A stretch of DNA of 64,000 nucleotides from an uncultured Methanosarcinales archaeon (lineage in GTDB: Archaea > Nanobdellota > Nanobdellia > Woesearchaeales > JACPBV01), in assembly GCA_964618315.1 (NCBI GenBank), contig CAZTWQ010000003.1, forward strand, positions 17,215 to 81,214, in the 5' to 3' direction. The translations under genes were made by a program, and so were the position numbers. The notes under the pieces are model-generated. The model saw only the letters and a program-made list of their open reading frames with translations. It was not told the DNA's origin and did no database searches. The first letter of the stretch is position 1. Every line of letters begins with the position of its first letter. This document shows positions 6,073 to 64,000 of this stretch, piece after piece.

Positions 6073-7515
6073 ATGAAAGTCTTATTTGTAATGCGAGATA
6101 TCAAGATGTGCGAGCATTTAGGTATTATGTATATTTCTAGTATATTAAAGAAAAACGGTCACGAAACAGACCTTGTACAAACAGACCTAGAAGATTATGA
6201 AAAGAAAATAAAAGATTTTTCTCCAGATATTTTGGCATATACTACAACAACTGGTGAACATAAGCCCCTTATTGATATAAACAAGAAAATCAAAAAAACA
6301 TTCCCCCACTTGATTTCATTATTTGGAGGACCCCACCCAACATTCTTCCCTGAGATGATAGAAAGTGAAGGCGTCGATATAATCTGCCGAGGTGAAGGCG
6401 AATTTATAATTCTTGATCTTGTAAATGCACTAAAAGAAAAAAAATCTATAGATAACATCCAAGGTATATGGGTAAAAAAAGATAATAAAATATTCAAAAA
6501 CCCTATGCAACCTTTAACAAAAGACCTCGACCTAATCCCATTTCCTGATCGTGAAATAATCTACAACCATGATAAAAATCTAAAAGAATTCGGAGAAAAA
6601 AGAATTCTAATTGGAAGGGGGTGTCCATTTAGATGTACTTATTGTTTCAACAACCGCCTCTCTAATCTATATGGGGCAGAATGGGATAGAGTAAGAAAAA
6701 GGAGTGTATCTAATGTAATAAAAGAAGTAAAAGAGATAATAGAAAAATACCCTGTTGAATTTATAAGAATAGTAGACGACACATTTATAATGTGTGATAA
6801 GAAATGGCTTGAAGAATTTGCAGAAATGTTCAAAAAAGAGATAAACATCCCTTTTTTCTGTAATGTAAGGGCAAACCTAGTAACAGAAGATGTAGTTAGA
6901 TTATTAAAAAAAGCAGGCTGTTTCTCAATCTTCATGGCTATAGAAACAGGAGATGAAAAAGTAAGGAACACCCTCCTTAAAAGAAACATGAGTGACGAAG
7001 ATCTATTCAAAGCATGTAAACTATTAAGAAATGCAGACATAAAATACGGCTTCTATAACATGTTTGGGCTGCCCGTGGAAAACGCATTAGAAGTTGATTT
7101 TAAGACATTAGACCTTAACATAAAACTAAAACCAACTATGGCGTGGTCATCAATATTCACCCCATTTCCAAAAACAGAACTAGGGGAATATTGTATAAAA
7201 CATGGCTATTTCGACGGAGATTTTGATAAAATCGAAGCAAACCCAAAAATTGGTTCTGTACTAAAATTCAAGAACAAAAAAGAAAAAAGACAGATAGAAA
7301 ATCTCCATAAACTATTTGGAATTACAGTAGAATTCCCATTTCTACGCCCACTCACAAAACAACTTATCAAACTACCCCCTAATAAATTATTCAACATAAT
7401 CAATATGGGATGGTATGGCTGGGTGCTTAAAGTCAGGATGAGCACAATCAAAATAACTATTCCAAAACTTTTTAAATGGGCTAAAGTTGTAATGAAACAT
7501 ACAAAAAGTGAATAA
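6073..7515 (+). CDS. Radical SAM protein with N-terminal B12-binding-type domain (class B-like)
   Basis: CxxxCxxC in GRGCPFRCTYC. N-terminal Rossmann-like region with LFGGPHPTF. AIETGDEKV (GxExG-type SAM motif). Confidence 0.9.
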   Translation: MKVLFVMRDIKMCEHLGIMYISSILKKNGHETDLVQTDLEDYEKKIKDFSPDILAYTTTTGEHKPLIDINKKIKKTFPHLISLFGGPHPTFFPEMIESEGVDIICRGEGEFIILDLVNALKEKKSIDNIQGIWVKKDNKIFKNPMQPLTKDLDLIPFPDREIIYNHDKNLKEFGEKRILIGRGCPFRCTYCFNNRLSNLYGAEWDRVRKRSVSNVIKEVKEIIEKYPVEFIRIVDDTFIMCDKKWLEEFAEMFKKEINIPFFCNVRANLVTEDVVRLLKKAGCFSIFMAIETGDEKVRNTLLKRNMSDEDLFKACKLLRNADIKYGFYNMFGLPVENALEVDFKTLDLNIKLKPTMAWSSIFTPFPKTELGEYCIKHGYFDGDFDKIEANPKIGSVLKFKNKKEKRQIENLHKLFGITVEFPFLRPLTKQLIKLPPNKLFNIINMGWYGWVLKVRMSTIKITIPKLFKWAKVVMKHTKSE

Positions 7516-7516
7516 T

Positions 7517-9862
7517 ATGAAATCATTCCTAAAAAAAAACAAATATCATATAATATACATATCCTTGATGATAGTTATTACTCTTGTCTTTCTCAGCAAA
7601 TATATTAATCCAAATACAATTTATGCTTGTGATTTAAATGCAAGAGCAGCAAGAGGCAGTGTTCTTAAAGAATCCGTATTAAAATACCATGATTTTTATC
7701 CATTATACAATCCTTATTGGATGGCTGGGGATGCATTCTGGAACAGACCAAATTCAGCTGATTTCAACAATCCAATGTGGTTCCTGATGTTTATCATCCC
7801 AACGATAGGTGCATTGAAATATATACTAATCCTGGGTATTATCGGAGCAGGAATCTCCATGTATGCACTCATGGTATACTTAATCAAAAAACCACAATTT
7901 GCATTTGTTTCTGGATTAGCGTTTATGTTTAACGGATGGATAATAGAACATGTAAGGGACTGCCATATATCTAGTGTCAATGCTCCAATGTTTATACCAC
8001 TCATCATATTATTCACAGTAAAAGCAATAAGAAAGAAAAAATGGATAAATAATGCGATTATTGCTGGAATATTGTTCTCTTTGCAAATATTCTTTGCACC
8101 TGATTTCAAGGTTGCAATGTTTACTGCACTAGTATTTGGATTGCTACTCTTAATATTTATCCCTGGGAAACATATCCAGAAAAGAATAACAAAAATAATC
8201 CTAATTGGTGCAATAATATCTTTAGTTGTCTTTGGTTTAACTGCTCAAAAAGTATTACCGACAAAAGAGCTCATCAGCCAAACAAGTAGAGGCCAAACAA
8301 CATGGGAAATGGCATCTGGTAGACAAATACAATTAAGAAATATGTTCACAAAAATGATAGAACCAATATATGAAGGCATGCCTAAGGTGCAAAGATTCGG
8401 AAAAACACAAAACATAGGCATAATTGCTTTTCTTCTTGCCATATTCGCAATATACAAAAAGCCAAAAAACAGAATCGTTCTCTTTGCATCAGCAGTCATT
8501 ATATTATCTATATCAATAGTCACCGCCTCACCAGTATTCTATTTCCTATGGAAATACATACCCCCATTTAACAGCTTTAGGTACCTTACAAGGTCTGTAG
8601 TAATATTTGTATTTGCATCATCAGTTCTTGCAGGATATGGATCTTTTGCATTAATAGATTCAATTAAGAAAAAAGGGATAAAAGAAAAAGGAACAAAATC
8701 AGCATACATCATAATTGTCCTATTGCTCATACTAAACTTAAATGTTTTTGGATATTCCCCTTATAGAGACTATTATGAAAATCCATTTATAGACCTAAAT
8801 GAAGCAATTGAAAACAATCATATAATGCAGGCCATAAGTAAAGAACCAGGAATATTCAGAACTCATGTTTATGAAACCAAGGGTATTGACTGGCCAGTTG
8901 AGTATTATACTGCGCCTATTGGTGTAGAACTTATCTATGGCCACGAATCTGCATGGGATGTAAGATACCTAAATGAATATTTGAGTATAGCAAACAACCA
9001 ACCTGCAAAATTATGGGGAATACTCAATACAAAATACATAACATCAAAAACTGAACTAAATATCTCAGGATTTAAATTCATAAAAAAATATGAAAACTGC
9101 ACAAAATGTTTCCAAATAGAACAAACAAAAAAAGCATATGGCCCTTACCTATATAAGAACGAACTGTTCCTTCCTAGAGCATACATAGTAAACAATAGCA
9201 TATTGATTGTAGGAGAAAACGACCCAGTCACACAAACATTATATGGATTGATGCTAAATCAAAATTTTAAGCCACAAAATACAGTAATAATAAAAGGCAA
9301 AAAAAGCATCAATGATTACCCTCAAGAAGACCTAAAAAAATACTCTGCAATATTTCTTACCTCTGGCTCAATAGACCAAAACTCAATTCTAACATTACAA
9401 AACTATGTAAACTCGGGAGGCATATTATTGCCAGACATAACAAAAAACAAAAACTTAATTAGTGAAGATGAAATCAATACAATGCTAAATTCATTTAAAG
9501 GAAATCTAAACATAATAGACGAAAAAAACATAATAACACATAATTTTGACAAGAGGGAAATAATAACAAACAAACAAAGCGGATTCTTGGTCTTAAGTGA
9601 ACGCTTCTCAATGTTCCCAGGATGGACTGCAGAATCAAAACAAGGAAAAACTACTGAAATACTGATGGCTGATGGAGTAATAACAAGCACATATCTAGAT
9701 AGTGAAGAGAGTATAGTTTTTGAATACAAACCAAAACCATTTATTATAGGTACATGGATTACAATAACAACATTGATTATTCTCCTAAGTTATCTTATCA
9801 TTAATTTGAAAAATAAAAGACTTAATAGAAAAAATGAGAAACTGGATAAAAAAGAAGAGTAA
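7517..9862 (+). CDS. YfhO-like GT-C polytopic membrane glycosyltransferase
   Basis: About 780 aa with many N-terminal TM helices, a large C-terminal soluble domain and a final TM helix. Paralogous to 53816..56155 (shared GPYLY...PRAY.VNN and N.GGIL.P blocks). ATG 7517 is 1 nt after the rSAM stop. Confidence 0.7.
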   Translation: MKSFLKKNKYHIIYISLMIVITLVFLSKYINPNTIYACDLNARAARGSVLKESVLKYHDFYPLYNPYWMAGDAFWNRPNSADFNNPMWFLMFIIPTIGALKYILILGIIGAGISMYALMVYLIKKPQFAFVSGLAFMFNGWIIEHVRDCHISSVNAPMFIPLIILFTVKAIRKKKWINNAIIAGILFSLQIFFAPDFKVAMFTALVFGLLLLIFIPGKHIQKRITKIILIGAIISLVVFGLTAQKVLPTKELISQTSRGQTTWEMASGRQIQLRNMFTKMIEPIYEGMPKVQRFGKTQNIGIIAFLLAIFAIYKKPKNRIVLFASAVIILSISIVTASPVFYFLWKYIPPFNSFRYLTRSVVIFVFASSVLAGYGSFALIDSIKKKGIKEKGTKSAYIIIVLLLILNLNVFGYSPYRDYYENPFIDLNEAIENNHIMQAISKEPGIFRTHVYETKGIDWPVEYYTAPIGVELIYGHESAWDVRYLNEYLSIANNQPAKLWGILNTKYITSKTELNISGFKFIKKYENCTKCFQIEQTKKAYGPYLYKNELFLPRAYIVNNSILIVGENDPVTQTLYGLMLNQNFKPQNTVIIKGKKSINDYPQEDLKKYSAIFLTSGSIDQNSILTLQNYVNSGGILLPDITKNKNLISEDEINTMLNSFKGNLNIIDEKNIITHNFDKREIITNKQSGFLVLSERFSMFPGWTAESKQGKTTEILMADGVITSTYLDSEESIVFEYKPKPFIIGTWITITTLIILLSYLIINLKNKRLNRKNEKLDKKEE

Positions 9863-10763
9863 AAATATTTTAAAATTATTAATAGGATTATTCCTCATAG
9901 TTTTTTTTATGAAATGGATTAATCTGGCAGATGCATTCGATTTGATGAAAGATATAAGATTAAGTATATTCTTCTTCACAATTTTCTTGTTATTCCTGGT
10001 TCATTTAACAAAGGCCTTGAGAACTTACTTATTTATGAAGTCATTAAATTTCAAACTTAACTTTCATAAAAACTTCATAGTACATATGATTGTACCGATA
10101 ATAGGCAGATTTACACCTGGACAGATAGGAGAAGGTGCTAAGATATTCTTCCTTGGAAAAAATAAAGAGATCACATTTACATTCATACTTGAAAAAGTGA
10201 TAGATATAATAATCTTGATGGTAATTTCATTATTTGCCATTATAAATTTCAAATTTTTTGTGAAATCCTACTTAATATTTATTTTATTAGCGATAATTGG
10301 GGTAATAGCCCTGCTAAATATTGAAAAGATACTAAACCTTATATTAAGAAGAAAAGTATTTGAGAAAAAATGGTTTAAGATATATCTTAGAAAATCATCA
10401 CCTAAAAACTTAGCATTATTTTTATTCTTTTCATTGATAGTAAGACTGCTGCTGTTGATATTCCCCTATTTTATTGCCCTATCTATGAATATAAAGATTA
10501 GTTTGTTAATGATAATCCAGGCGTATTCACTCGCAATGCTTGTAGGTATAGTCTCAGGATTACCAGGGGGCCTTGGCTCAAAAGAATTCACATTGACCTT
10601 TTTACTTATTAACTTTGCATACTTAAACAAAGATATAGCAGGTATATACACATTATTCATAACATTTAGTTTGATATTGGGAGAATCTTTATTCGCATCG
10701 ATTTCGTATCTAATCTACAAATTAAATCTTTTCACAGATAAAGATTCTCCTCAAACCGATTAG
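9834..10763 (+). CDS. UPF0104 / LPG-synthase-TM-like 'flippase-like' membrane protein
   Basis: About 310 aa, about 8 TM helices, lysine-rich N-terminus, PGQIGEGAKIFFL motif. Paralog at 59567..60511. Confidence 0.65.
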   Translation: MRNWIKKKSKNILKLLIGLFLIVFFMKWINLADAFDLMKDIRLSIFFFTIFLLFLVHLTKALRTYLFMKSLNFKLNFHKNFIVHMIVPIIGRFTPGQIGEGAKIFFLGKNKEITFTFILEKVIDIIILMVISLFAIINFKFFVKSYLIFILLAIIGVIALLNIEKILNLILRRKVFEKKWFKIYLRKSSPKNLALFLFFSLIVRLLLLIFPYFIALSMNIKISLLMIIQAYSLAMLVGIVSGLPGGLGSKEFTLTFLLINFAYLNKDIAGIYTLFITFSLILGESLFASISYLIYKLNLFTDKDSPQTD

Positions 10764-11501
10764 CTGCATTAGATTATTTTTAAATAATTTTTCTAGGAAT
10801 TCTCCAATTTTTGTAATGAATCTAGGTCCCTGAGCTATAAGGACTGTTGTTTGTTCTTTTTTTATCTTTAAACCTGCATCATGTATGTATTTTATCAATT
10901 TTTTTCTCCTTAAGAACCTATGGGGCCCTTCACTGTGGTGTATATTTAAAACTGCCACAACCCAATGTATTGGTTCCCATAATATATTAGGTGTAGTTAT
11001 TATTATCTGCCCGCTTCTTTTACAAACTCTTGCGATTTCTTTTATGAATTTCCCAGGATTAGAAAAGTGCTCTACAGTCTCAAAACACAACACACTATCA
11101 AAAGTATTATCTTTTAAGGGAAGTGGCAAATCTGTAAATTTCAATAATTTATAATTGTCTATCTTATTATTTTCAAGTTTATTCCCACATATATTCAAAA
11201 ATTCTTGTGAAACATCAGCACAAATTACATTAGATATCTTCCCTTTCTTATGAAAAAAAACAGTCCCATTGCCTGGTCTGCAGCATATATCTAACACATA
11301 ACCCTGATCCTTCAAATTACTTAATTCAAAACTATCCTCAAATCTCCTTGGATAAGCATAAGTTTTATCATCTATCTGTTCATAATCATAAACCGAATCC
11401 CAGAATTCTCCAACTTCCCTGTAGCCCCATTTTCTCTTCTTAATATAACTGACTTCTTTTCTAAACCGCTTAAATAAACCTTTTAACTGCATCATTATCA
11501 C
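10722..11501 (-). CDS. Class I SAM-dependent methyltransferase
   Basis: Motif I VLDICCRPGNG; post-motif VLCFETVEHFSNP. The start overlaps the upstream stop (ATGA). Confidence 0.8.
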   Translation of the reverse strand: MIMMQLKGLFKRFRKEVSYIKKRKWGYREVGEFWDSVYDYEQIDDKTYAYPRRFEDSFELSNLKDQGYVLDICCRPGNGTVFFHKKGKISNVICADVSQEFLNICGNKLENNKIDNYKLLKFTDLPLPLKDNTFDSVLCFETVEHFSNPGKFIKEIARVCKRSGQIIITTPNILWEPIHWVVAVLNIHHSEGPHRFLRRKKLIKYIHDAGLKIKKEQTTVLIAQGPRFITKIGEFLEKLFKNNLMQLIGLRRIFICEKI

Positions 11502-12142
11502 TCAAATTTTTTAACATATTTCTTTTCAATCTTGGATCTTATTGCTTTTTTTATAAACAAAGGCAGTTTAAAATAGAATCTCCTAAAAATTCTCCTTGCA
11601 TTTATTTTAAGAAAACCTTTTTCCCCCACCTTAAAATTATAATTATTATATGAAACTAATTGCTCAACATCATCATTCCTTTTATGGGGCTTAGGTTCAT
11701 CAGAAGGGTAACCTAAAGCAATATAAGCAATGGGATCGTAATGATGGGGGATATGTAGTAATCCCCTAAGATCATTCTTATTAGGTAACTGACATATCCA
11801 ACAACTACCCAATCCTAATGAATGTGATTTAAGGAGCATATTTTGTATGCACGCAGAAGCACTTTGGATATGGTCATTGTACTCAAGATTATCTGTTTGA
11901 TTCTTATAAAGAACCAATATCCCGATGGGGGCTGCACTTATGACAACAGACCCGCCCAAATCAATGATTCTATTCATCAACTTTTTGTTATCAATTATAA
12001 TAAATTTCCATTCTTGATGATTACAAGCACTTGGCGCCCAAATACCTGATTCCAGAATTGCATTTATTATTTTTTCATCTACTTTATCATCAGAAAACTT
12101 ACGTATGCTTCTCCTATTCCGAATAGCCTGTTCTAGTTTCAT
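11498..12142 (-). CDS. Nitroreductase-family flavoprotein
   Basis: RRSIRKFSDDKV...APSACNHQEWKFIII, the typical nitroreductase N-terminal signature. Confidence 0.85.
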   Translation of the reverse strand: MKLEQAIRNRRSIRKFSDDKVDEKIINAILESGIWAPSACNHQEWKFIIIDNKKLMNRIIDLGGSVVISAAPIGILVLYKNQTDNLEYNDHIQSASACIQNMLLKSHSLGLGSCWICQLPNKNDLRGLLHIPHHYDPIAYIALGYPSDEPKPHKRNDDVEQLVSYNNYNFKVGEKGFLKINARRIFRRFYFKLPLFIKKAIRSKIEKKYVKKFE

Positions 12143-12148
12143 AAAAAA

Positions 12149-13015
12149 TTATTTAGTGCTCTTATTTAAAAGGTCTGCTATTCCACCAAGAAAGCAAATC
12201 TGTAATCCCCCAAGTATCAAAAGAATAGGTAATTGACCCACACCCAAAGAATCTGTTAAAACCTGATACGCCCCATGAATTATTCCCGCTATTATAATCA
12301 AAATACCAGGTATTAAGAAAAATTTCAAAGGATTAAAATACATCACAATCTTAAATATCAAAGATATAAAACCAACAAAATCCTTTAAAGGAGAAATAGT
12401 AGATTTCCCAACCCGTTTATGATAATCTATAGGGACATATTTTATAGAATAAGAATTATTGAATGCGACTAAAGTTATAGTAGTAGTAAATGAAAAACCA
12501 TTTGGAAACAACCTAATAAAATTAACGGCAATTTCTTTCTTAAATATCCTGAATCCGGAATTAACATCATCTATTTTTCCATCACACATAAAGTTTACTA
12601 ATAAAGATATAAACCATTTAGCAGGTCGCCTTAAGAAAGGGATATTTACATTTTTACCTTTTCTTGAACCTACAACCATATCATAATCATCAGCAAATTT
12701 TATTAGTTTAGGTATATCACCTATAGGGTATGTTCCATCTGCATCAACTATTAAAACCCAAGGATATTTTGCATTCTTTATCCCTTTTTTCAAAGACGCC
12801 CCATAACCCAAGTTATATGGATTATTAATCAATGTTATTCCAGTTTCCCTATCCAATACATCTTTTGTTGAGTCTGTACTCCCATCATTAACAACAATTA
12901 TCTCATACTCTAATTTAGTAGAAGACATAACTTCCATTATTTGATTGATAGTAGAATGAACAGATTTTTCCTCATTATATGCTGGCAAAAGTACTGTAAT
13001 TTTTTTATCTTTCAT
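12149..13015 (-). CDS. Polyprenyl-phosphate glycosyltransferase, GT2 with C-terminal TM helices
   Basis: ITVLLPAYNEEKSV, IVVNDGSTDST, VDADGT. C-terminal hydrophobic helices. Internal ATG 13015 (MKDKKITV) preferred over 13033. Confidence 0.85.
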   Translation of the reverse strand: MKDKKITVLLPAYNEEKSVHSTINQIMEVMSSTKLEYEIIVVNDGSTDSTKDVLDRETGITLINNPYNLGYGASLKKGIKNAKYPWVLIVDADGTYPIGDIPKLIKFADDYDMVVGSRKGKNVNIPFLRRPAKWFISLLVNFMCDGKIDDVNSGFRIFKKEIAVNFIRLFPNGFSFTTTITLVAFNNSYSIKYVPIDYHKRVGKSTISPLKDFVGFISLIFKIVMYFNPLKFFLIPGILIIIAGIIHGAYQVLTDSLGVGQLPILLILGGLQICFLGGIADLLNKSTK

Positions 13016-13955
13016 TTTTATACCACTCCACAAAAAGCCTAATTCCTTCTTCTATTTTAATCTTTGGGTCATAACCAAATAATCTCTTAGCTTTCGAAAT
13101 ATCTGCATATGTAAGTGGAACATCGCCTTCCTGCATAAGTAATTGGTTTATCTTTACTTTATTACCTATTGCACCCTCAATGACTGATATAAATTTCCTT
13201 AATTCAACTGTATTTGAATTTCCTAGGTTGATTATCTCAAACCCTAAATTTTTATCTAAAGATAGCAAAATCCCATCCACTATATCCTTGACATAAGTAT
13301 AATCTCTTTTTGATGTTCCATCACCATACATATCTATTGGTCCACCTCCAAGAATAAGCTCTGTAAACTTATAAGGTGCCATGTCAGGTCTCCCCCTCGG
13401 ACCATAAACAGTAAAAAATCTTAAGCAAGTCACATTCAAGTCAAAATTATCATGAAACTCATTGCATAGTTCCTCTGCCTTTTTCTTAGTATTTGCATAA
13501 GGGCTTATTATATTTTCAATATGATCATCTTCGGAGAAAGGTATCTTTTTATTTGTCCCATAAACAGATGAACTAGAACCAAAAATAAAATTCTTTATTT
13601 TAAATTCTGTTGCAAACTCCAACATATTCCTAGTTCCATCAACATTAACTCCCCAATATAACCCGGGATTCTCAAAAGAAGCCCTAACTCCTGCTCTCGC
13701 TGCTAAATGCACTATCTTATCAACATTATTCAATTTAAAGACTTCCTTTAACCCTTCATAGTCTGTTATATCCTGCCTATAAAGTATAAAATTAGGATTA
13801 TCTTTAAATCCAGAAATATTCTTTTCTTTAGTCTTCGGATCATAATAATCATTGAAGTTATCCACGCAGATTACTTTATTTTCCTTAGACAAAAGAGTTT
13901 CACAAACATGACTACCTATAAATCCTGCTCCACCTGTAACTAGTACTGTTTCCAT
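13005..13955 (-). CDS. NAD-dependent nucleotide-sugar epimerase (UDP-glucuronate 4-epimerase-like SDR)
   Basis: METVLVTGGAGFIGSH, YANTKKKAE (YxxxK), RFFTVYGPRGRPDMAPYKF. ATG 13955 preferred; the track ORF extends to 14096. Confidence 0.85.
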   Translation of the reverse strand: METVLVTGGAGFIGSHVCETLLSKENKVICVDNFNDYYDPKTKEKNISGFKDNPNFILYRQDITDYEGLKEVFKLNNVDKIVHLAARAGVRASFENPGLYWGVNVDGTRNMLEFATEFKIKNFIFGSSSSVYGTNKKIPFSEDDHIENIISPYANTKKKAEELCNEFHDNFDLNVTCLRFFTVYGPRGRPDMAPYKFTELILGGGPIDMYGDGTSKRDYTYVKDIVDGILLSLDKNLGFEIINLGNSNTVELRKFISVIEGAIGNKVKINQLLMQEGDVPLTYADISKAKRLFGYDPKIKIEEGIRLFVEWYKNER

Positions 13956-53815: not shown

Positions 53816-56155
53816 TCAATCTGTTTTTATATCTTTTGGTAGCTTGTTTTTAAAAGATAAAAAAATAAAGTAAAACAATATACAGAACAAAGTTAACAAA
53901 GTTATTATCATACCTATCTTAAATGACCTTGGAAAATAGCTAAATTCAATCTCATAATCATCACTATCCACAAAAACACCACTTGAAAAACCATTTGTCC
54001 TTAATATCACCCTATTATCATCAGCACCCCACCCATCATACAAAAAGTATTTCTCAGCTACCACAACAAAACCAGAACTGCCATCTAAATCGATTCTTAT
54101 ACTATTTGGCTTATATTCAGATACACTAATCATTTCAATTGACCCATAATCAGAGGCATACATATTTAGTAGATCATCAATCTGTCCTTTTTTTAATGAT
54201 GTTTCACCATTAAATATATTGGGCATCAATATACCGCCATTATTCGAGTATTGCTTGAGTTGAGCCACATCTTTTGGTTGATCAAGGAGTATAACCGCAT
54301 CAAATTTCAATAAAAACCATTCATCCTGTTCATATAACTCATTAATATCCAGGGGGATTATAGCAAGATTAGCAGGACTAAATCCATTACCCAATATGAT
54401 TGAATACATAGCATCTACTGTCTCTTTTTCACCACCAAGAACAAGAATAGTATTGTTAACCCTATAAGCCCTAGGCACGTATCTTTTATTCAAATAAAGA
54501 TATGGACCAAAATTCCCATCACAAGCATCTGGCTTAAAAGACACAGAAGGGTCGCAAGACTCAAATTCTTTCGTTAAGACCAAATCCGAATTATTTAGGG
54601 TAGTATCTGAATAAAAATATTTAGTATTATACATCCCCAATATCTTTGATGGATTTGAAAACGCAATAGGATTTATGAACTGCAATAAATACTCTGATTC
54701 AAAAGTATTCAATTGACCATGTATAGTTGAGATTCCCATAGGTACCCATCTTGATTGGCCCCCACCACCTATATGATTAAACATGTCCCATTGATGAACC
54801 CTAAACAAATTCCCCACTTCAAATTCATTGAGATAAACCATAAGCTCATTTCTATTCATCTCTTCTTCCATATTAATTCGCCTATAATTCTCATTTGGAG
54901 GCTCATAAGGCAATCCAATCAATAACAATATAAACAAAACAAGGAATATCATAATAATAAATTGTTTCTTTTTTACCCTACTAGCAATATTCTTAAATAA
55001 AAAACTAAAGCCAAATGCACTTAACACACTAAAACAAAAAGGAACAAGATGAATTACTCTGATTATATGGTGCTGCTTATTAAAACCTGGGAAAAACTTC
55101 CATAAAAAATAAAAAAGATGTGAACCAATAGCTACGTTAGATAATAAAACTATTGAAATGACAAAAAACAAGACATATTTATTCTTGATTAAAGGTAAAG
55201 CGAGTAAAGCAAGAATAAATGTAAAAATGCCGATCATAATCTCATTAGACCACTCAAGCCCATTTTCAGTAGTCAACCCAACTACAATCTTAACAAGAGG
55301 ATCAAACAAGCTATTTGACTGTATATGATACCCCTTAGCAGACTCAAAAGACCTTACACCACTTAAATCAGAAACCTTGCCAAAATCCGTTAAAGGAAAA
55401 AGCCTTATTGCAGATAAACCAAACAAAACTATTGAAAATACGATAAAGATCGATATCATTTTTTTATATTTTTTCAATGAAATTAATGTGAAAAAGATAA
55501 AAAATAAAGAAATAAAGAATAACATATAAGTAAAGGTAGAAACATCTCCTGCATGGAATGCTAATACAGAAAATATTCCAGCAAAAATAGAATTTTTAAT
55601 CCATTCTTGATTCTTATACGCCCTAAAAAGAAAAAAGAAGATTGCAGGAAGCCAAACTATTGAATCAAAATGTAATTCTCCCCCTGATGTTAATGCACTC
55701 AGATTATACCTATTGAACATAAATGTAAAAGCCCCAATAATGGAGTATTTATAGTCTAATTTCAACTCCCAAATTAGAAAATACATTGTAATACCTATAA
55801 TAAAAAGTTGAAGCATCCCAAGTAGATTAAAAGCAACATTAAATGAAGGAAGCAAAACAATAAGTATATTTGCTATATTAAAAACAGGTGCCTGAGGGTA
55901 TTGAAAATATGGTGTACCACCATAAATATAAGGAACCCACAAAGGAAACTGATGATTATCAACAATTGATTCCTTTACCAAGATACTATTAATATCATAC
56001 TGCCCCCTCATATCCCAAGTTGGATCATATTTATCAAAACTAAATTTAGAATTCAACAAGCCCCAAATTATAACAGCCAATAATATTATAATTATGCCTA
56101 GTATTCTTTTATTTTCAAATAGTTTCTTAAATTTAAACTGCGTATTTAAAATCAT
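53816..56155 (-). CDS. YfhO-like GT-C polytopic membrane glycosyltransferase (paralog of 7517..9862)
   Basis: Same architecture and shared blocks (GPYLYLNKRYVPRAYRVNN; NNGGILMPNI). Internal ATG (M13 of track ORF 53816..56191) preferred. Confidence 0.7.
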   Translation of the reverse strand: MILNTQFKFKKLFENKRILGIIIILLAVIIWGLLNSKFSFDKYDPTWDMRGQYDINSILVKESIVDNHQFPLWVPYIYGGTPYFQYPQAPVFNIANILIVLLPSFNVAFNLLGMLQLFIIGITMYFLIWELKLDYKYSIIGAFTFMFNRYNLSALTSGGELHFDSIVWLPAIFFFLFRAYKNQEWIKNSIFAGIFSVLAFHAGDVSTFTYMLFFISLFFIFFTLISLKKYKKMISIFIVFSIVLFGLSAIRLFPLTDFGKVSDLSGVRSFESAKGYHIQSNSLFDPLVKIVVGLTTENGLEWSNEIMIGIFTFILALLALPLIKNKYVLFFVISIVLLSNVAIGSHLFYFLWKFFPGFNKQHHIIRVIHLVPFCFSVLSAFGFSFLFKNIASRVKKKQFIIMIFLVLFILLLIGLPYEPPNENYRRINMEEEMNRNELMVYLNEFEVGNLFRVHQWDMFNHIGGGGQSRWVPMGISTIHGQLNTFESEYLLQFINPIAFSNPSKILGMYNTKYFYSDTTLNNSDLVLTKEFESCDPSVSFKPDACDGNFGPYLYLNKRYVPRAYRVNNTILVLGGEKETVDAMYSIILGNGFSPANLAIIPLDINELYEQDEWFLLKFDAVILLDQPKDVAQLKQYSNNGGILMPNIFNGETSLKKGQIDDLLNMYASDYGSIEMISVSEYKPNSIRIDLDGSSGFVVVAEKYFLYDGWGADDNRVILRTNGFSSGVFVDSDDYEIEFSYFPRSFKIGMIITLLTLFCILFYFIFLSFKNKLPKDIKTD

Positions 56156-56171
56156 ATTCAACCACAACAAC

Positions 56172-58040
56172 CTATAACAACTTAAAAACAACCATGCTCT
56201 TTGTTTGATGAACTACCTGGAATTTTTCAGAACTGATTATTTCCTGCAATCTTTTCGGAAGAAGCTCATTTGTTTCATTTTCACCAAATGGTCTAACAAG
56301 ATCCCTATAAGACATGCTATCCATGACTAAATACTGGTATTTTTCTTTTTTCAGCCAGTTATAAAGCTCAGAAACATTTTGATATAATAAATCTTTCCTG
56401 AATTCTATCAGATTATCACACCACATACAGCTAAATTTATCTAGGCCAATAACTATTTCATCGCCAGAATATGAAAAAACCTTTGTATTAACTGGCAGGG
56501 TTTTTAACCACATATACCCGCTAACCTCATCATTAGAAGTCCACACACCCCCTGGCAGCCACATAGCAGTATTCAATGTATATTTTTGTTGACCAGAAGT
56601 TAGGAATATCAAAATAATAATTAAAGAAATAGTAGCTATCTTTGGCACCTTCATCTGTTTGAGAAGTTCAACTATAAAAACGAATCCATGCGCTGCAATT
56701 AAAGACAAAGGAATAGCAAACAACATCCAAAACCTAAATGCAAACAAACCAACAGGAAGATTAAAAGTCACACTATTTATACCAATAAATGTAAATAACA
56801 ACCACAACAATGCTACACTAATCCAATGATTTTTTTCATCAGCTAATGATTTATACCGCCTTAAAATAATAATTAAACTTAAAAAAAGCAAAATTGACAA
56901 AACAATACCTACCCCAATAGGATTATTAATCAAATTTTGTGATTTTGCAACAAAAAAATCATTAAATGTGTATGCTCTAGTAGCCGTACCCGAATTACTA
57001 GGGAATGCCCTAGCAAGCTTACCTATCAATTGCGTTATAAAATTTGTTTCCTGAGTACTAAAAATTATTGCCTTTTTCCCTTGCTTCCCAAACATTGCCC
57101 CAATCTTATTATACCACCATAATAAAGACAACAAAAAACCACCAATCATTGCAAATAATACATTCCATTGAACTTTCTTCTTTAAAATAGAAAAGACAAC
57201 TAAATATATACCAACCAATATTGAGATTTTTATTGCCTGTGTAGGTTGTATTAGAAAAATTCCTGAATATACCAACATAAAAGCATATTTCCACCGACTA
57301 TCTTCCCTTATCCTGCCTATTGAATACATCAATGGGAAAAAACAAGTAACAACTAAAGAATGTGACCATATAAAATGACTCAAATAACAAGGCACCATAA
57401 CAAATATAGATGTCGAAAGTAATGCCTTATTCCTATTTCCAACAAATTGTTTAGCAAAGAAATAAAAAAAGAGCACACCTAAGGAAATGATCAATGCATT
57501 GAAAAACTTCATGGTCCACATAAGAGATGATGATGTTTGATGCAATACTCCAAAAAGAACAGCAAAACCAGGGGGATATGGGTCTATATATTTAAAGACA
57601 TTATTAGTATCCCTCACATTTTTCTCCATTGTCACATATTTAATGCCTTTAGCATGAGTCCAAGGGTCATCATCCTCAAGATAAGGATAAACAAATGACC
57701 CCTTTACATACATAAATAGAGTAAGAAAGAACATCACTAAAACTAAGATAACAGCAATATTTGATTTTGTTAATTTAATAGATGGAATTTTAATGCTATT
57801 CCTAAATCTAAACATATTATATACAGGAATTATAATGCTAAGCACTAAAAAGATCTTCCAATCTATAGGTATATGCAAAAGATTTAATATTACCCCTAAA
57901 AGGGGGATTACACCTAAACCAAAACCAATCCTCATTAAATTCCTTTCAAAAAGATTATTTGAACTTTTTAGAAAAAAAGAGATACTATAACCTAAGCCAT
58001 AGGTATAAATAAAAAACAATATTATTGTTATTATGCTCAT
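56172..58040 (-). CDS. GT-C-like polytopic membrane glycosyltransferase with extra N-terminal TM module
   Basis: More than 12 TM helices. First-loop motif YPYLEDDDPWTHAKG. No WWDYG motif. ATG 58040 is preceded by GGGGGT; the track start is TTG 58094. Confidence 0.65.
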   Translation of the reverse strand: MSIITIILFFIYTYGLGYSISFFLKSSNNLFERNLMRIGFGLGVIPLLGVILNLLHIPIDWKIFLVLSIIIPVYNMFRFRNSIKIPSIKLTKSNIAVILVLVMFFLTLFMYVKGSFVYPYLEDDDPWTHAKGIKYVTMEKNVRDTNNVFKYIDPYPPGFAVLFGVLHQTSSSLMWTMKFFNALIISLGVLFFYFFAKQFVGNRNKALLSTSIFVMVPCYLSHFIWSHSLVVTCFFPLMYSIGRIREDSRWKYAFMLVYSGIFLIQPTQAIKISILVGIYLVVFSILKKKVQWNVLFAMIGGFLLSLLWWYNKIGAMFGKQGKKAIIFSTQETNFITQLIGKLARAFPSNSGTATRAYTFNDFFVAKSQNLINNPIGVGIVLSILLFLSLIIILRRYKSLADEKNHWISVALLWLLFTFIGINSVTFNLPVGLFAFRFWMLFAIPLSLIAAHGFVFIVELLKQMKVPKIATISLIIILIFLTSGQQKYTLNTAMWLPGGVWTSNDEVSGYMWLKTLPVNTKVFSYSGDEIVIGLDKFSCMWCDNLIEFRKDLLYQNVSELYNWLKKEKYQYLVMDSMSYRDLVRPFGENETNELLPKRLQEIISSEKFQVVHQTKSMVVFKLL

Positions 58041-58101
58041 TGTACCCCCTATCAAAAACAATCGAAACCTATATAAATAGTTTACTATAATCAAATATCT
58101 A

Positions 58102-58691: not shown

Positions 58692-59570
58692 ATGAAAGTC
58701 ATAGTTACAATTCCAGCCTATAATGAGGAAGGAACAATCGGCAGGGTAATTACAGATATAAAAAAAGTTATGGACAGTAATAAGTATGATTATGATGTTC
58801 TTGTTGTTGATGATAGTTCTAAAGATAAGACAGCAGAGATAGCAAAAAGAGAAGGGGCCATAGTTTACTCTCACCCAAAGAATTATGGTTTAGCAGAAAC
58901 ATTCAAATCAGAAATGAAAAAATGTCTTGAATTAAAAGCAGACATAATTGTACACATAGATGCAGATAGGCAATATCTTGCTGAAGAAATACCTAAACTA
59001 ATAAAAGAAGTAGAGCACGGAAATGACCTTGTCCTAGGATCTAGATTTAAAGGAAAAATAGAACATATGCCTTTTATCAAAAAATTAGGGAATAGGCTCT
59101 TCTCAAGGGTGATTTCAAACATATCGGGTCTCAAAATTAGCGACTCGCAAACTGGATTCAGAGCATTCGATAAAAAAGTAGCTGAAATGAAAATAATCTC
59201 ATCTTACACATATACTCAAGAACAAATAATAATGGCTGTAAAAAACAAGTTCAAAATAAAAGAAATTCCCATTTATTTTGCAAGGCGGAAAGATAAAAGT
59301 AGATTAATGAAAAATCCTTTTGATTTTGCTTTAAAAGCTTGGCTAAATATTCTCAGAGTATATAGAGATTATGAACCTATGAAATTTTTTGGTAGAATAG
59401 GTGGTTTCTTTCTATCAACTGGTTTTTTACTAGGTTTATGGCTCATTTACTTATATCTAACAAACGGCGCTATTGGAAGGATACCCTCACTAATATTGAG
59501 TATGTTATTAATTGTAATGGGGATACAAATAATGCTATTTGGATTTCTAGCTGATATGAATAAAAGATGA
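58692..59570 (+). CDS. Polyprenyl-phosphate glycosyltransferase, GT2 with C-terminal TM helices
   Basis: VIVTIPAYNEEGTI, VVDDSSKDKT, IDADRQ. Two C-terminal TM helices. Confidence 0.85.
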   Translation: MKVIVTIPAYNEEGTIGRVITDIKKVMDSNKYDYDVLVVDDSSKDKTAEIAKREGAIVYSHPKNYGLAETFKSEMKKCLELKADIIVHIDADRQYLAEEIPKLIKEVEHGNDLVLGSRFKGKIEHMPFIKKLGNRLFSRVISNISGLKISDSQTGFRAFDKKVAEMKIISSYTYTQEQIIMAVKNKFKIKEIPIYFARRKDKSRLMKNPFDFALKAWLNILRVYRDYEPMKFFGRIGGFFLSTGFLLGLWLIYLYLTNGAIGRIPSLILSMLLIVMGIQIMLFGFLADMNKR

Positions 59571-60511
59571 AAAAAAAGGCACTTATCTTAAAATTACTAG
59601 TTAGTGTCCTTATTCTGGGAACCCTAATTTATAAAGTTGGAATAAAAAGCATAATAGATACCCTCTTAAAAATAAATATTTTATATTTGCCAATAATTTT
59701 TATTGTAATCATATTAATTAACTTTTTTGGGGCTTGGAAACTAATGCTTTTTTTCAAACCAGTAGGTATCAAAATGCCATTTTGGAAAATTTATCATTAT
59801 TATTTTCTAACATGGTGTCTAAGTTTATTCATACCTGGAAAAATAGGTGAACTTTGGATGGTCTATTTCTTAAAAAAAGAAAAAACAAGCCTAGGTATTG
59901 GAAGTGCAGTTGTGATTATGAATAAATTAATTGGGATAATCGTTGTGTTCTTCTTAGCTATAGGGGGCATGCCTTTATTCTTTGATGCAATCCAATCATT
60001 AAAAATAATTTCAGTATTTTTTATTGGACTCTTACTTTCTATTTACATCCTTTTCTCAAATTTTAGTAGGAAATTCATAAGGAAATTCATATTAAGAAAA
60101 TGGGAATCAAAATTTGAAGGATTCTCAAAAACGTTATTCACCCTGCTAAAAAATCACAAACCAAGTATACTATATAATTCCCTATTAAGTTTAATAAACT
60201 GGATTACCAATGCTTTTGTAATATACTTTTTATTCTTGGCTTTTGGACAACATGTCCCTATTCTCAAGATAATACTCATAAATGCCATACTAACTATAAT
60301 TACAATGATTCCAATAAGCATAAATGGGCTAGGAATCAAAGAATACACTGGAGTATTTCTCTTCAGCCTATTAGGGATATCTACACTGACAACTACTAGC
60401 GTATTCCTAACATATCTAATATCAATATACTTAATTTCTCTAATATATATCATTTTATTCTTCGAAAGAAAAAATAAGTTAAACATAACAAAATCTACTG
60501 CCAAAAATTAA
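59567..60511 (+). CDS. UPF0104 / LPG-synthase-TM-like 'flippase-like' membrane protein
   Basis: PGKIGELWMVYFLKK. About 8 TM helices. ATGA overlap with the upstream GT2. Confidence 0.65.
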   Translation: MKKKALILKLLVSVLILGTLIYKVGIKSIIDTLLKINILYLPIIFIVIILINFFGAWKLMLFFKPVGIKMPFWKIYHYYFLTWCLSLFIPGKIGELWMVYFLKKEKTSLGIGSAVVIMNKLIGIIVVFFLAIGGMPLFFDAIQSLKIISVFFIGLLLSIYILFSNFSRKFIRKFILRKWESKFEGFSKTLFTLLKNHKPSILYNSLLSLINWITNAFVIYFLFLAFGQHVPILKIILINAILTIITMIPISINGLGIKEYTGVFLFSLLGISTLTTTSVFLTYLISIYLISLIYIILFFERKNKLNITKSTAKN

Positions 60512-60519: not shown

Positions 60520-61548
60520 TTATAATGCTGTACAATCTCTGCAGACATGATGTAGTTTATTATTACGTAAATTCATTCTAAAAGAACTATACTTACCATT
60601 ATTCCATATTTTACCAAAAGGTGCTTTAAGGATATTACCACACACATAATGTTTACTTGATATATTCCTGCAACAAGGAGTGACGTACCCTTCATAAGTT
60701 ATATAAGTCTGCAACCATGGCGAAACACAATTTTCCCTAGCCGCTCTTTTTTTAACTACTGGAATTATAACTTCAATACCTTTCTTAAATCCCACTTCCC
60801 TCATTTTGTTTAAAAAAGAATTATACTCTAAAGAAAGCGACTCAGATTCAGGTACAGTTTGTCCCTCTTTTCCAACCTGAACTTCTTGAATATTTATTTT
60901 TTTAATCCCTAATTCTTCCATTATATCGAGAATTCCAAACATTTCTCCCTTATTTGTCTGCATAAGGGTTGTATTAAACATGATTTCTGGTTTTGAAACA
61001 TTTAATTTTTTCTTTAATGTCTGAATATACCTCAAATTCTTCATCAAGAGTTCAAAATTGCCCCCCCTCCTAACAACATCATAAGTCTTTTTTGTACTTG
61101 CATCAAATGAAACAAATAAAGTATCTAACTTGACCCCAATAAGTTTATTAGCCATAGTTTCATTTATCAATAAAGCATTTGAATATATCATAACTTGATT
61201 TCCCCTTCTTTTTTCATAATCTACCATTTTTAACAGGCTCTTATTAAGAAATGGCTCCCCTATACCTGATAATTTAACAGTATGATAATAGTTAAAATTC
61301 CTTATTATCTTCTTAAAATTATCAAAAGATAATTCCCCCTTTTGATCTCTTTTAAGATTATTAATATAACACATATAACATCTTAAATTGCACCTATTGG
61401 TAACTTCAATCTGGATATTTCTTGGTTTAGATATAACTTTCTCAGGCAAACGTATGTTCAACAAGTAATCGATTCCATTAAAAAATAATGATTTCATACC
61501 CATCGTCTTCAAATTCAAGATTATTTTTTGGAGTAACATATTAATCAC
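60520..61548 (-). CDS. Radical SAM protein with C-terminal Cys-rich SPASM/twitch-like domain
   Basis: TNRCNLRCYMC (CxxxCxxC). C-terminal Cys cluster: ENCVSPW...TPCCRN...VCGN...VCRDC. Confidence 0.85.
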   Translation of the reverse strand: MINMLLQKIILNLKTMGMKSLFFNGIDYLLNIRLPEKVISKPRNIQIEVTNRCNLRCYMCYINNLKRDQKGELSFDNFKKIIRNFNYYHTVKLSGIGEPFLNKSLLKMVDYEKRRGNQVMIYSNALLINETMANKLIGVKLDTLFVSFDASTKKTYDVVRRGGNFELLMKNLRYIQTLKKKLNVSKPEIMFNTTLMQTNKGEMFGILDIMEELGIKKINIQEVQVGKEGQTVPESESLSLEYNSFLNKMREVGFKKGIEVIIPVVKKRAARENCVSPWLQTYITYEGYVTPCCRNISSKHYVCGNILKAPFGKIWNNGKYSSFRMNLRNNKLHHVCRDCTAL

Positions 61549-63448: not shown

Positions 63449-63449
63449 T

Positions 63450-64000
63450 TTATTCTTTCACCTTTACTTGCTTACCATAATTCATATAAAATCTTAACAT
63501 CCTTACTAACTCTTTCCTATTTTTTAACAAAGATAAAAAATAATTAATAATCTTAATATAAATATGTTTTTTTCTAAACAACATCACAGGATTAAATATG
63601 AAACTTATAAGATTCAATTTATAAGTATTAACAATATCTTTTAATCCTTTTTGGAGATCTTCATTTGAAAGGTCCTTTAACTTAAGATGCCCAAAATCAT
63701 AGCCAGTTATTCCGCCTTTAGTTTCAACAAGCATTCCTTCCTTCTCTGCTAGATTATACAAGTCTGTCCCATAAAGGGGCGTAGTTGCCGCTACAAAAAT
63801 AAAATCTGGTCGAGCCCTTTTTATGAAGTTTACAGTCTCTTGCAGCGTTTCATTAGTTTCACCTGGAGAACCTATCATAATATTTGCCCTCCCACAAATT
63901 CCTGCCTGCTCTGCCCACTTTATTGCTTGCTCTGCCTGCTCAACCTTAGTTCCTTTTCTCAACATATTCATGATCTTCTGTGAACCACTTTCTATACCAT
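63450..64000 (-). CDS. Radical SAM protein, C-terminal part only (5' end beyond the window)
   Basis: The frame stays open to the window edge: GIESGSQKIMNMLRKG...IGSPGETNETL...TPLYGTDLYNL. These are the same C-terminal blocks as the six B12-type rSAM proteins. Confidence 0.8.
   Translation of the reverse strand, partial: GIESGSQKIMNMLRKGTKVEQAEQAIKWAEQAGICGRANIMIGSPGETNETLQETVNFIKRARPDFIFVAATTPLYGTDLYNLAEKEGMLVETKGGITGYDFGHLKLKDLSNEDLQKGLKDIVNTYKLNLISFIFNPVMLFRKKHIYIKIINYFLSLLKNRKELVRMLRFYMNYGKQVKVKE

Follow-up and report, generated by a model that had tools for sequence, protein, structure and literature searches.

The window analysed here, a stretch of 64,000 nucleotides from an uncultured Woesearchaeales archaeon (contig CAZTWQ010000003.1, GC content ca 31%), carries a glycan island in which seven radical S-adenosylmethionine (SAM) enzymes of class-B type and one SPASM enzyme are encoded among ca 57 genes. 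For two of the class-B-type subfamilies, the gene is paired with that of a family 2 glycosyltransferase (GT2), and this pairing is conserved in other genomes and translationally coupled. The island itself contains several predicted units made up of a GT2, a flippase-like protein and a glycosyltransferase of the C fold (GT-C). We put at about even the chance that the seven enzymes are the tailoring enzymes of a modular surface-glycan island and modify sugars by radical chemistry while these are nucleotide- or lipid-linked.

An earlier note on this DNA, written from the letters alone, had drawn attention to the density of radical SAM genes. The proteins belong to a known superfamily, within which they form new subfamilies, and we have found no prior description of the context in which they occur. 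The more interesting point, which that note missed, is the conserved cassette of GT2, radical SAM enzyme and (in part) methyltransferase, together with its link to GT-C enzymes.

Radical SAM proteins of the window

The window contains 56 open reading frames (ORFs) of at least 150 aa, and exactly seven of these have a CxxxCxxC motif. Searches of the window for tRNAs and Rfam families gave no match. The motif scan and Pfam agree on the six clusters and the SPASM-type enzyme that the earlier note had located. The class-B-type genes are called rSAM_1 to rSAM_7 below, and the short GT2 genes GT2_a to GT2_e:

rSAM_1, 6073–7515, + strand: class-B-type, 480 aa; PF02310 58 bits, PF04055 84 bits; motifs CPFRCTYC, GGPH and GEGE; placed between GT2_a and a GT-C-like 784-aa membrane protein; top NCBIfam model BchE (140 bits, cutoff 481)
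rSAM_2, 26834–28243, + strand: class-B-type by Pfam, 469 aa; member of a very large orthologous family
rSAM_3, 29335–30681, + strand: class-B-type by Pfam, 448 aa; inside a deoxythymidine diphosphate (dTDP)-sugar operon; top NCBIfam model HpnJ (197 bits, cutoff 578)
rSAM_4, 44873–46372, + strand: class-B-type by Pfam, 499 aa; between a Wzx flippase and a cytidine diphosphate (CDP)-alcohol phosphotransferase; top NCBIfam model the Sden_1168 P-methyltransferase family (199 bits, cutoff 575)
rSAM_5, 47159–48634, + strand: class-B-type by Pfam, 491 aa, first ATG at 47165; flanked by two CDP-alcohol phosphotransferases
rSAM_6, 50574–51989, − strand: class-B-type by Pfam, 471 aa; 11-nt overlap with GT2_d
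rSAM_7, 63450–64000, − strand: C-terminal third of a 487-aa class-B-type protein, cut at the window edge
SPASM enzyme, 60520–61548, − strand: 342 aa; PF04055 63 bits; PF13186 54 bits (cutoff 21.5, E 2e-14)

All seven proteins are built in the class-B manner, with a cobalamin-type Rossmann domain at the N-terminus and a radical SAM TIM barrel behind it. Each of the six full-length proteins has the B12-binding domain PF02310 (52–80 bits, E 9e-14 to 2e-22) ahead of PF04055 (68–94 bits, E 2e-18 to 1.5e-26), the Pfam gathering scores being 32.1 and 29.5 bits, respectively; with the SPASM enzyme, which is assigned Radical_SAM plus SPASM, the PF04055 scores of the seven complete proteins span 63–94 bits. 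The edge fragment of rSAM_7 covers the portion of this architecture that has GxESG and GxPGE and reaches 27.6 bits on PF04055 by itself, just under the gathering score. The full gene, present on a longer public contig, has both PF02310 and PF04055 in the precomputed Pfam annotation and carries the motifs GGSH, GEGE and CPGNCLFC. Of the other motifs reported before, GG(P/I)H does not apply to the protein at 50574, where GGPF is found instead. The rSAM_5 ORF opens at TTG 47159, and the start given earlier, 47165, is its first ATG.

The B12-binding assignment, which the earlier note had based on motif pattern, is borne out by Pfam for all six full-length proteins and by fold for rSAM_2, the sole protein modelled. 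Its AlphaFold2 model (pLDDT 90.4, pTM 0.89) displays the cobalamin-binding fold in the N-domain. In a Foldseek search the top match is AprD4 (TM 0.75), followed by TsrM, MgmA/QCMT, OxsB, TokK and CysS across both domains, with query-normalised TM values of 0.64–0.75, and the radical SAM core of this one model, a partial TIM barrel, matches many radical SAM structures with a probability of 1.00. Sequence comparison gives a similar picture. When the rSAM_2-family profile is run against the Protein Data Bank (PDB), AprD4 (6FD2) again comes first with E 8.7e-42, the alignment covering the radical SAM core only (residues 171–397), while the second match, OxsB (E 3e-29), includes the N-domain; MgmA/QCMT, TokK, TsrM and CysS follow. 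With rSAM_5 as query, the PDB sequence ranked first is that of MgmA/QCMT, a cobalamin-dependent methylase (9CCB, E 3e-18).

None of the eight proteins reaches a curated NCBIfam cutoff, and the paralogs do not fall into characterised housekeeping radical SAM families. The closest models are BchE, HpnJ, the Sden_1168 and PhpK P-methyltransferases and the MJ_1487/MJ_0865 families, with 136–236 bits against cutoffs of 251–775. All seven class-B-type proteins stay below the cutoffs of BchE, HpnJ, PhpK, Sden_1168, HpnR, BzaD, QCMT and the other class B equivalogs. The same is true of the AprD4 family NF033070 (cutoff 500), on which the six full-length proteins score 59–132 bits and the edge fragment 24 bits; in rSAM_2 this match is limited to residues 175–403.

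It is important to note that the fold alone is no proof of cobalamin binding, since AprD4 and ArsL lie inside the class-B similarity network and have Rossmann-related domains but bind no cobalamin (PMC12931638). A DxHxxG motif was not found in the class-B-type proteins of the window, which is compatible with base-off, His-free binding, and the solved class B structures all bind cobalamin in this way, base-off and without a His ligand (PMC12931638). The reviews give no sequence signature that separates cobalamin binders from AprD4-like non-binders, or methylases from non-methylases, but only structure-derived residues under the corrin ring (PMC12931638, PMC13331322).

The description of the paralogs as one B12-binding-type family is correct only at the level of the superfamily. 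The pairwise identities among the seven are, however, only 24–36%, which points to old, distinct subfamilies, individually widespread, rather than to recent duplicates or a recent expansion. Similarly, the density of radical SAM genes is real but was overstated when it was called extreme. Radical SAM enzymes make up ca 1–2% of anaerobe genomes, and eight in 57 genes is far above that background. Comparable clusters nevertheless recur in DPANN archaea, the candidate phyla radiation (CPR) and other uncultivated lineages. Among 80 genome loci there are 19 with at least two near-full-length class-B-type genes within 21 kb, and among 80 metagenome loci there are 35 with at least two, some of which have 4–6 in 8–13 kb, many without recognisable glycan genes; on the metagenome contigs, up to six B12-type genes occur in 11.6 kb. 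With one gene per 8 kb over 58 kb, the window is at the high end for a glycan island but no outlier among uncultivated anaerobes. Five of the metagenome contigs carry tandem arrays of 4–6 near-full-length B12-type paralogs in 8–13 kb, and several of these arrays have no recognisable glycan genes around them, apparently forming a separate, unexplained kind of class-B cluster.

The SPASM enzyme adjoins an asparagine-synthase-type amidotransferase and lies downstream of it. Its best NCBIfam model is a W-cofactor maturase (156 bits, cutoff 380), and its best PDB sequence matches are BtrN, GDGT-MAS, SkfB and BlsE. Homologs with 23–29% identity recur together with B12-type enzymes in twelve of the related loci. 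The SPASM enzyme may belong to the same glycan-tailoring toolkit as the B12-type enzymes.

Coupling to GT2 and GT-C enzymes

Every radical SAM copy overlaps or abuts same-strand glycan genes in a tight operon, and the Pfam and NCBIfam assignments of the gene neighbours agree with the earlier view that the setting is that of glycan synthesis rather than of a cofactor or of ribosomally synthesised and post-translationally modified peptides (RiPPs). The modules that contain the radical SAM genes are as follows (SDR, short-chain dehydrogenase/reductase; UDP, uridine diphosphate):

Module A, + strand: UDP-sugar dehydrogenase, GT2_a, rSAM_1, 784-aa membrane protein, flippase-like protein
Module D, + strand: GT4, GT2_c, FdtA-like ketoisomerase, rSAM_2, DegT aminotransferase, rSAM_3, RmlA, RmlB, methyltransferase, DUF2079 membrane protein, GT4
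Module E, + strand: Wzx, rSAM_4, CDP-alcohol transferase, rSAM_5, CDP-alcohol transferase
Module F, − strand: 640-aa and 791-aa membrane proteins, SDR, GT2_d, rSAM_6, GT4
Module H, − strand: (GT4), rSAM_7, asparagine-synthase-type amidotransferase, SPASM enzyme

Three of the class-B genes adjoin short GT2s, and in two of the three modules concerned there is a gene for a large membrane protein as well. In modules A and F, the class-B gene is located between or beside the GT2 and the GT-C genes. The genes of the predicted lipid-linked sugar machinery are (Dol-P, dolichyl phosphate):

5111–6046, + strand: GT2_a, polyprenol-phosphate-hexose-synthase-like, with C-terminal transmembrane helices; AglJ 158 bits
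7508–9862, + strand: GT-C-fold candidate of 784 aa, paralog of the protein at 53816–56191
9834–10763, + strand: flippase-like LPG_synthase_TM protein; PF03706; TIGR00374 59 bits (cutoff 43.2)
10722–13033, − strand: GT2_b, nitroreductase and class I methyltransferase, by Pfam
25620–26339, + strand: GT2_c, short and soluble, ArnC/Dol-P-hexose-transferase type, without transmembrane helices; opens the rSAM_2/rSAM_3 operon
51979–58094, − strand: upstream part of module F, with the 640-aa polytopic protein, the 791-aa GT-C-like paralog, an SDR epimerase/dehydratase and the short GT2_d
58692–60511, + strand: GT2_e, AglJ-like (159 bits), and a second flippase-like protein; TIGR00374 78 bits (same cutoff)

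All five GT2s have Dol-P- or undecaprenyl-phosphate-sugar synthases as their best models (AglJ, ArnC, PpgS, PgfS, Dol-P-hexose transferase), with 50–159 bits and thus under the equivalog cutoffs of 325–529. GT2_a matches ArnC, PgfS, Dol-P-hexose transferase and PpgS in addition to AglJ, all below cutoff, and GT2_d on the − strand is closest to AglJ and Dol-P-hexose transferase. Transmembrane helices are predicted at the C-terminus of three of the five, the other two being short, soluble proteins. Both flippase-like proteins exceed the TIGR00374 cutoff, the flippase role being a prediction from sequence.

For the 784-, 791- and 640-aa membrane proteins, no direct match was obtained in Pfam or among the PDB sequences. 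When the 784-aa protein was modelled with AlphaFold2 from an alignment of 18 homologs (pLDDT 84.5), all of its top 23 Foldseek matches were GT-C enzymes, among them AftD, STT3/OST, PglB, ArnT, AglB, AftA, DPY19 and Pmt4, and the protein thus models as a GT-C glycosyltransferase candidate. The GT-C enzymes matched are all known to use polyprenol-phosphate-linked donors. The 791-aa protein (53816–56191, − strand) is 30% identical to the 784-aa protein over 748 aa. Among the homologs of the latter, the precomputed Pfam annotation gives YfhO in two and PTPS_related in two; 19 homologs are detectable, and all organism-named ones come from Woese- or Nanoarchaeota. Two further proteins lie near the PMT_2 gathering score of 26.1, namely 14116–15813 (25.2 bits) and 16500–18056 (31.0 bits, also DUF6541).

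The conservation of the pairing was followed for rSAM_2 by scanning one genome per species of the Genome Taxonomy Database (GTDB), with gene neighbourhoods taken from the 80 best loci. The family has 3614 proteins at E<=1e-20 among those scored, of ~470 aa and 47–55% identity, and relatives are present in at least 588 GTDB species. These belong to Chloroflexota, Brocadia and other Planctomycetota, Nitrospirota, Omnitrophota, many Patescibacteria, Iainarchaeia, Woesearchaeota, Nanohaloarchaea, Altiarchaeota and Methanosarcinales, and the complete genome of Ca. Brocadia pituitae carries the cassette. A GT2 gene is found within 400 bp of 46 of the 81 orthologs. In 42 of these 46 cases the GT2 gene precedes the radical SAM gene in the same orientation, and the two mostly overlap by 4 nt or are 0–16 nt apart. 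A class I methyltransferase usually follows on the 3' side, and in CPR genomes a nitroreductase stands between the GT2 and the radical SAM gene. Where the locus spans at least 15 kb, 38 of 45 cases include an ORF for a large polytopic membrane protein (minimum 400 aa and 8 hydrophobic segments).

The second conserved pairing is that of rSAM_6, whose family comprises 2984 proteins at E<=1e-20, the organism-named matches being mostly from DPANN archaea. A Woesearchaeota genome (GCA_016177615.1) keeps the trio of SDR, GT2_d and rSAM_6 at 73, 62 and 54% identity. Within 14 kb its contig encodes four radical SAM enzymes of the B12 type, of which three have a short GT2 as neighbour, and there is a PMT_2 GT-C gene and a methyltransferase as well. 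For four genes that flank radical SAM genes of the window, the closest matches are in Woesearchaeota metagenome-assembled genomes, with identities of 80% for the UDP-sugar dehydrogenase, 73% for the SDR, 71% for GT2_a and 62% for GT2_d. Together with the organism-named GT-C homologs, these matches point to a DPANN, Woesearchaeota-like archaeon as the most likely source. For rSAM_5, no close relative was found in the 80 related metagenome loci (identity <=38%).

Approached from the GT-C side, through homologs of the 784-aa protein (n=4), the loci contain a GT2 in 4/4 cases, a flippase-like gene in 2/4 and a B12-type radical SAM gene within 7 kb in 2/4. It follows that a GT2 and a GT-C form the core, as a rule accompanied by a flippase-like gene, and that the radical SAM enzyme is an optional addition, one among several tailoring inserts. 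In one of the loci that lack it (L175), the genes are a GT2, a methyltransferase, a polysaccharide-deacetylase-like gene and a GT-C, and the deacetylase-like gene between GT2 and GT-C mirrors the ArnC-ArnD-ArnT layout. In the Arn pathway, the lipid-linked sugar is edited by ArnD after the GT2 has acted and before the GT-C does.

The trio at 10722–13033 (−) deserves a separate remark. GT2_b, the nitroreductase and the methyltransferase are orthologs, at 41–52% identity, of the CPR cassette genes in five of the loci. The cassette is here without its radical SAM gene, the ortholog of which (rSAM_2) is found 14 kb away in the dTDP-sugar operon. The nitroreductase has BluB as its best match, with 71 bits against a cutoff of 150; recurring as it does beside a B12-type enzyme, it might serve as electron donor or in cobalamin processing.

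Proposed chemistry and its alternatives

In the mechanism that we favour, the short GT2 of each unit would load a sugar onto polyprenol or dolichol phosphate, the flippase-like protein would carry the lipid-linked sugar across the membrane, and the GT-C enzyme would pass it to an acceptor. The radical SAM enzyme would work on the cytoplasmic face, on a substrate that still carries its nucleotide or lipid, the 5'-deoxyadenosyl radical attacking an unactivated carbon of the module's sugar or CDP-alcohol, and most copies would probably use cobalamin as well. We infer cobalamin binding, substrate, timing on the lipid carrier and chemistry alike, the lipid-linked timing from the gene order and from the ArnD-like slot in L175.

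Cobalamin-dependent C-methylation appears to be the single most likely chemistry, because most of the class B enzymes that are characterised or annotated are methylases (PMC13459092, PMC12931638). Sugars are indeed methylated by GenK, GenD1, Fms7 and MoeK5, and OxsB and, on genetic grounds, HpnJ and Cds are linked to sugar ring contraction, the sugar being lipid-linked for the latter two (PMC12931638, PMC13459092). The GT2-coupled copies may instead carry out a rearrangement or dehydration of the HpnJ, OxsB or AprD4 type. Since their best profiles are HpnJ and BchE and the best structure is AprD4, we place substantial weight on non-methylating chemistry for these copies.

The closest known enzymes include GenK, GenD1, Fms7, MoeK5 and OxsB, in which a B12-type Rossmann domain at the N-terminus is likewise combined with a CxxxCxxC radical SAM barrel, and the modelled fold of rSAM_2 matches OxsB, TokK, TsrM, MgmA and CysS over its full length. 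The substrate of the GenK/OxsB group is a carbohydrate, as it would be here. However, those enzymes come from actinomycete antibiotic pathways, whereas the window proteins reside in primary surface-glycan islands of DPANN, CPR and other uncultivated anaerobes, are coupled to polyprenol-phosphate-sugar-type GT2 and GT-C enzymes, and meet no curated cutoff. The predicted GT2, flippase-like and GT-C roles resemble those of ArnC/ArnD/ArnEF/ArnT, GtrA/B/C, CsbB/GtcA/YfhO and Haloferax AglD/AglR/AglS. In contrast to the Arn and Gtr systems, the flippase-like protein is of the MprF/LPG_synthase_TM type and not GtrA or ArnEF, and a radical SAM tailoring enzyme is present, none being found by our literature search in the three-component systems described. 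With Fom3 and the Sden_1168 P-methyltransferase there is a likeness in rSAM_4, for which Sden_1168 is the best model, and in the interleaving of rSAM_4 and rSAM_5 with CDP-alcohol transferases; Fom3 acts on a substrate activated by cytidine monophosphate (CMP). On the other hand, the score is far below cutoff and no phosphoenolpyruvate (PEP) mutase or other phosphonate biosynthesis gene is seen in the window.

Several observations weigh against sugar tailoring by cobalamin-dependent enzymes as proposed here. AprD4, a cobalamin-free diol dehydratase (PMC12931638), is the top PDB match of the rSAM_2 family both by sequence and by structure, and the profiles with the highest scores are BchE and HpnJ, which are not methylases. 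Class I SAM methyltransferases are encoded in many of the same cassettes, so methyl groups on the glycan would not by themselves implicate the radical SAM enzymes. The gene order does not separate a nucleoside-diphosphate sugar, a lipid-linked sugar or a lipid as the substrate. Every GT2 assignment is below its equivalog cutoff, rSAM_3, rSAM_4, rSAM_5 and rSAM_7 are not adjacent to a GT2, and the pairing of rSAM_5 with CDP-alcohol transferases recurs in 0 of the 80 related metagenome loci. Finally, genes for cobalamin salvage are absent from the window. In agreement with the earlier note, neither Pfam nor NCBIfam scans of it find a gene of cobalamin biosynthesis or transport, the precomputed Pfam lists for 10 kb on each side contain none, and no cobalamin riboswitch was found in it. 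DPANN genomes are generally cofactor-poor.

If the resemblance to AprD4 were taken at face value, the enzymes would be cobalamin-independent, the N-domain being a structural remnant, and would dehydrate a sugar 1,2-diol, with subsequent reduction by an SDR or the nitroreductase to give deoxy sugars. Besides being first among the PDB matches, AprD4 is itself a sugar-acting, two-domain enzyme of similar size, with paromamine as its substrate, and SDR or nitroreductase genes accompany several of the cassettes. We nevertheless consider this reading rather unlikely. The sequence match to AprD4 is confined to the radical SAM core, whereas the N-domains are solid members of PF02310 and align with the cobalamin domain of OxsB; the AprD4 model scores below BchE or HpnJ for every paralog, and rSAM_5 is closer to a true methylase, MgmA/QCMT, than to AprD4. 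The tight and conserved adjacency of GT2 and radical SAM genes would also fit a scheme in which, for the GT2-coupled copies, the GT2 attaches a hexose to a lipid and the radical SAM enzyme then contracts or rearranges the ring to give a carbocyclic (cyclitol-type) unit, as in HpnJ or calditol synthase. HpnJ is the best or second-best NCBIfam model of rSAM_2, rSAM_3, rSAM_4 and rSAM_6 (171–215 bits), and the hopanoid pathway likewise pairs a glycosyltransferase, HpnI, with a radical SAM enzyme of class B type proposed to act on a lipid-bound sugar, HpnJ and Cds being genetically tied to ring contraction of such sugars (PMC13459092). The scores are, however, only about one third of the HpnJ cutoff, the BchE and HpnJ models commonly draw unrelated class B proteins (labelled 'BchE' or 'YgiQ' by JGI), and the window has neither hopanoid genes nor an HpnK-type deacetylase beside the copies. 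Furthermore, a flippase-like protein and a GT-C enzyme follow here, so that the sugar would be passed on instead of staying a lipid head group, and a downstream GT-C implies a glycosyl donor, as which a carbocycle could presumably not serve. We therefore judge a ring contraction of this kind unlikely.

Roles outside the glycan are less likely, given the dominance of nucleotide-sugar enzymes, glycosyltransferases, Wzx and GT-C proteins. One such role would be the remodelling of membrane or carrier lipids, with isoprenoid chains or head groups methylated or cyclised as by GrsA/B, HpnP/R and the glycerol dialkyl glycerol tetraether (GDGT) methylases, and with the CDP-alcohol transferases and GT2s adding head groups to host-derived lipids. 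DPANN archaea rely on host lipids, the island encodes four CDP-alcohol phosphotransferases with archaetidylinositol-phosphate synthase as best match, and its two flippase-like proteins are of the MprF type. Many characterised class B enzymes from outside antibiotic pathways do act on lipids (PMC13459092). Against this, the scores of the CDP-alcohol transferases fall far short of the cutoff, nucleotide-sugar enzymes predominate in the island (RmlA/B, FdtA, DegT, GMD, a second GMD-family SDR, UDP-sugar dehydrogenase), the island also encodes GT4, GT9, a Wzx flippase and GT-C enzymes, and a Laminin_G_3 surface protein of more than 1200 aa lies beside it; lipid remodelling is thus quite unlikely in our view. 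It is very improbable that the enzymes serve RiPP, cofactor or protein maturation and merely happen to be located in a variable island. There are weak NCBIfam matches to C-methyltransferases of RiPP pathways, to ApyD and to metalloenzyme maturases, which could be read in that way, as could the mosaic character of the island, with its IS91 fragment and toxin-antitoxin pair, but there are no precursor-peptide, protease/transporter or cofactor genes nearby, every copy is embedded among same-strand glycan genes, and the glycan context is kept across phyla.

Other island genes and wider significance

The remaining genes that surround the radical SAM enzymes include a set for a dTDP-sugar and the CDP-alcohol transferases of module E:

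26332–26730, + strand: FdtA-like ketoisomerase (PF05523, E 6.5e-42)
28245–29330, + strand: DegT aminotransferase (PF01041, E 2e-123)
30750–31826, + strand: RmlA (419 bits, cutoff 320)
31823–32785, + strand: RmlB (459 bits, cutoff 365)
32787–33392, + strand: class I methyltransferase, last enzyme of the dTDP-sugar set
33362–35404, + strand: DUF2079 polytopic membrane protein of 680 aa (PF09852, E 1e-63; ~18 hydrophobic segments), at the operon end
46441–47172 and 48675–49340, + strand: CDP-alcohol phosphotransferases (PF01066), bracketing rSAM_5

RmlA, RmlB, the 3,4-ketoisomerase and an aminotransferase dependent on pyridoxal phosphate are the enzymes expected for a dTDP-3-amino-3,6-dideoxyhexose-type sugar, and the genes of this set (26332–33392) are interleaved with rSAM_2 and rSAM_3. 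No N-acyltransferase was found in this operon, which has the class I methyltransferase instead. The DUF2079 protein is probably a GT-C-like transferase. The CDP-alcohol transferases have archaetidylinositol-phosphate synthase and DIPP synthase as weak best NCBIfam matches, below cutoff, and cytidylyltransferases and a CMP kinase are encoded near the rSAM_4/rSAM_5 region. Elsewhere, the window encodes GMD, a second GMD-family SDR and the UDP-sugar dehydrogenase, as well as GT4 and GT9 enzymes and a Wzx flippase.

At the start of the window (630–3618), a PhnD/PhnC/PhnE-like ABC importer is found beside a small nucleotidyltransferase and a CDP-alcohol phosphotransferase, and just upstream, in the 10 kb preceding the window (L087), there are three CTP_transf_like genes. 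The module may take up a phosphonate or phospho-alcohol with which the glycan is then decorated; a PEP mutase was not seen. At 38009–43196 (−), a PHP domain (3',5'-bisphosphate nucleotidase-like, 136 bits) is fused to an adenosine-5'-phosphosulfate kinase and followed by four ORFs that have no significant Pfam or NCBIfam match. Two of the four are paralogs of ~365 aa with 43% identity, and one of these, together with a 302-aa ORF, also has no match among the PDB sequences. The region could be a sulfation module based on 3'-phosphoadenosine-5'-phosphosulfate, with uncharacterised transferases.

A GT9 heptosyltransferase-like gene is located at 18772–19986 (−), and PfkB kinase, HAD phosphatase and cytidylyltransferase-like genes lie upstream of the window (L087, 4967–6889). 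This set corresponds to an ADP-heptose-like sugar pathway of the lipopolysaccharide type, here in an apparently DPANN contig, and the same set is present in a Woesearchaeota locus (L172). The island is interrupted at 20226–21802 by a minimal nucleotidyltransferase/HEPN toxin-antitoxin pair and an IS91-type (Y2_Tnp) transposase fragment, which suggests that it was assembled as a mosaic. The Laminin_G_3 surface protein, of more than 1213 aa, lies ~6 kb past the window end (L085, 1–3056) and is a candidate glycan acceptor (S-layer or adhesin).

In a literature search, neither a coupling of class B radical SAM enzymes to polyprenol-phosphate-sugar systems nor their location in DPANN or CPR glycan islands was found to be described; the papers returned on Woesearchaeota and radical SAM enzymes, by title and abstract, concern lipids or unrelated subjects only. 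The characterised sugar-acting class B members that the reviews name come from antibiotic pathways (PMC12931638, PMC13459092).

We tentatively extend the proposal beyond this island, with more doubt than confidence. Class-B radical SAM enzymes could be a widespread tailoring layer of the polyprenol/dolichol-phosphate monosaccharide route, acting on the lipid-linked intermediate between the GT2 and the flippase/GT-C steps and producing B12-dependent C-methyl, branched or rearranged sugars in DPANN, CPR, anammox bacteria, Chloroflexota and others. Those with minimal genomes and without B12 synthesis would then need scavenged cobalamin for building their surface. The nitroreductase of the CPR cassette might then act as a reductant or a cobalamin-processing partner in this layer.

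To our knowledge, class B radical SAM enzymes are among the largest groups of enzymes with unknown function. The minimal three-gene cassette, consisting of a polyprenol-phosphate-sugar-type GT2, a B12-type radical SAM enzyme and a methyltransferase, occurs in at least several hundred bacterial and archaeal species and offers a concrete biochemical handle on new sugar chemistry in cell-surface glycans. If it is true that the enzymes use cobalamin, genome-reduced DPANN and CPR symbionts would need scavenged B12 to decorate their surfaces, and vitamin exchange would be tied to host–symbiont recognition.

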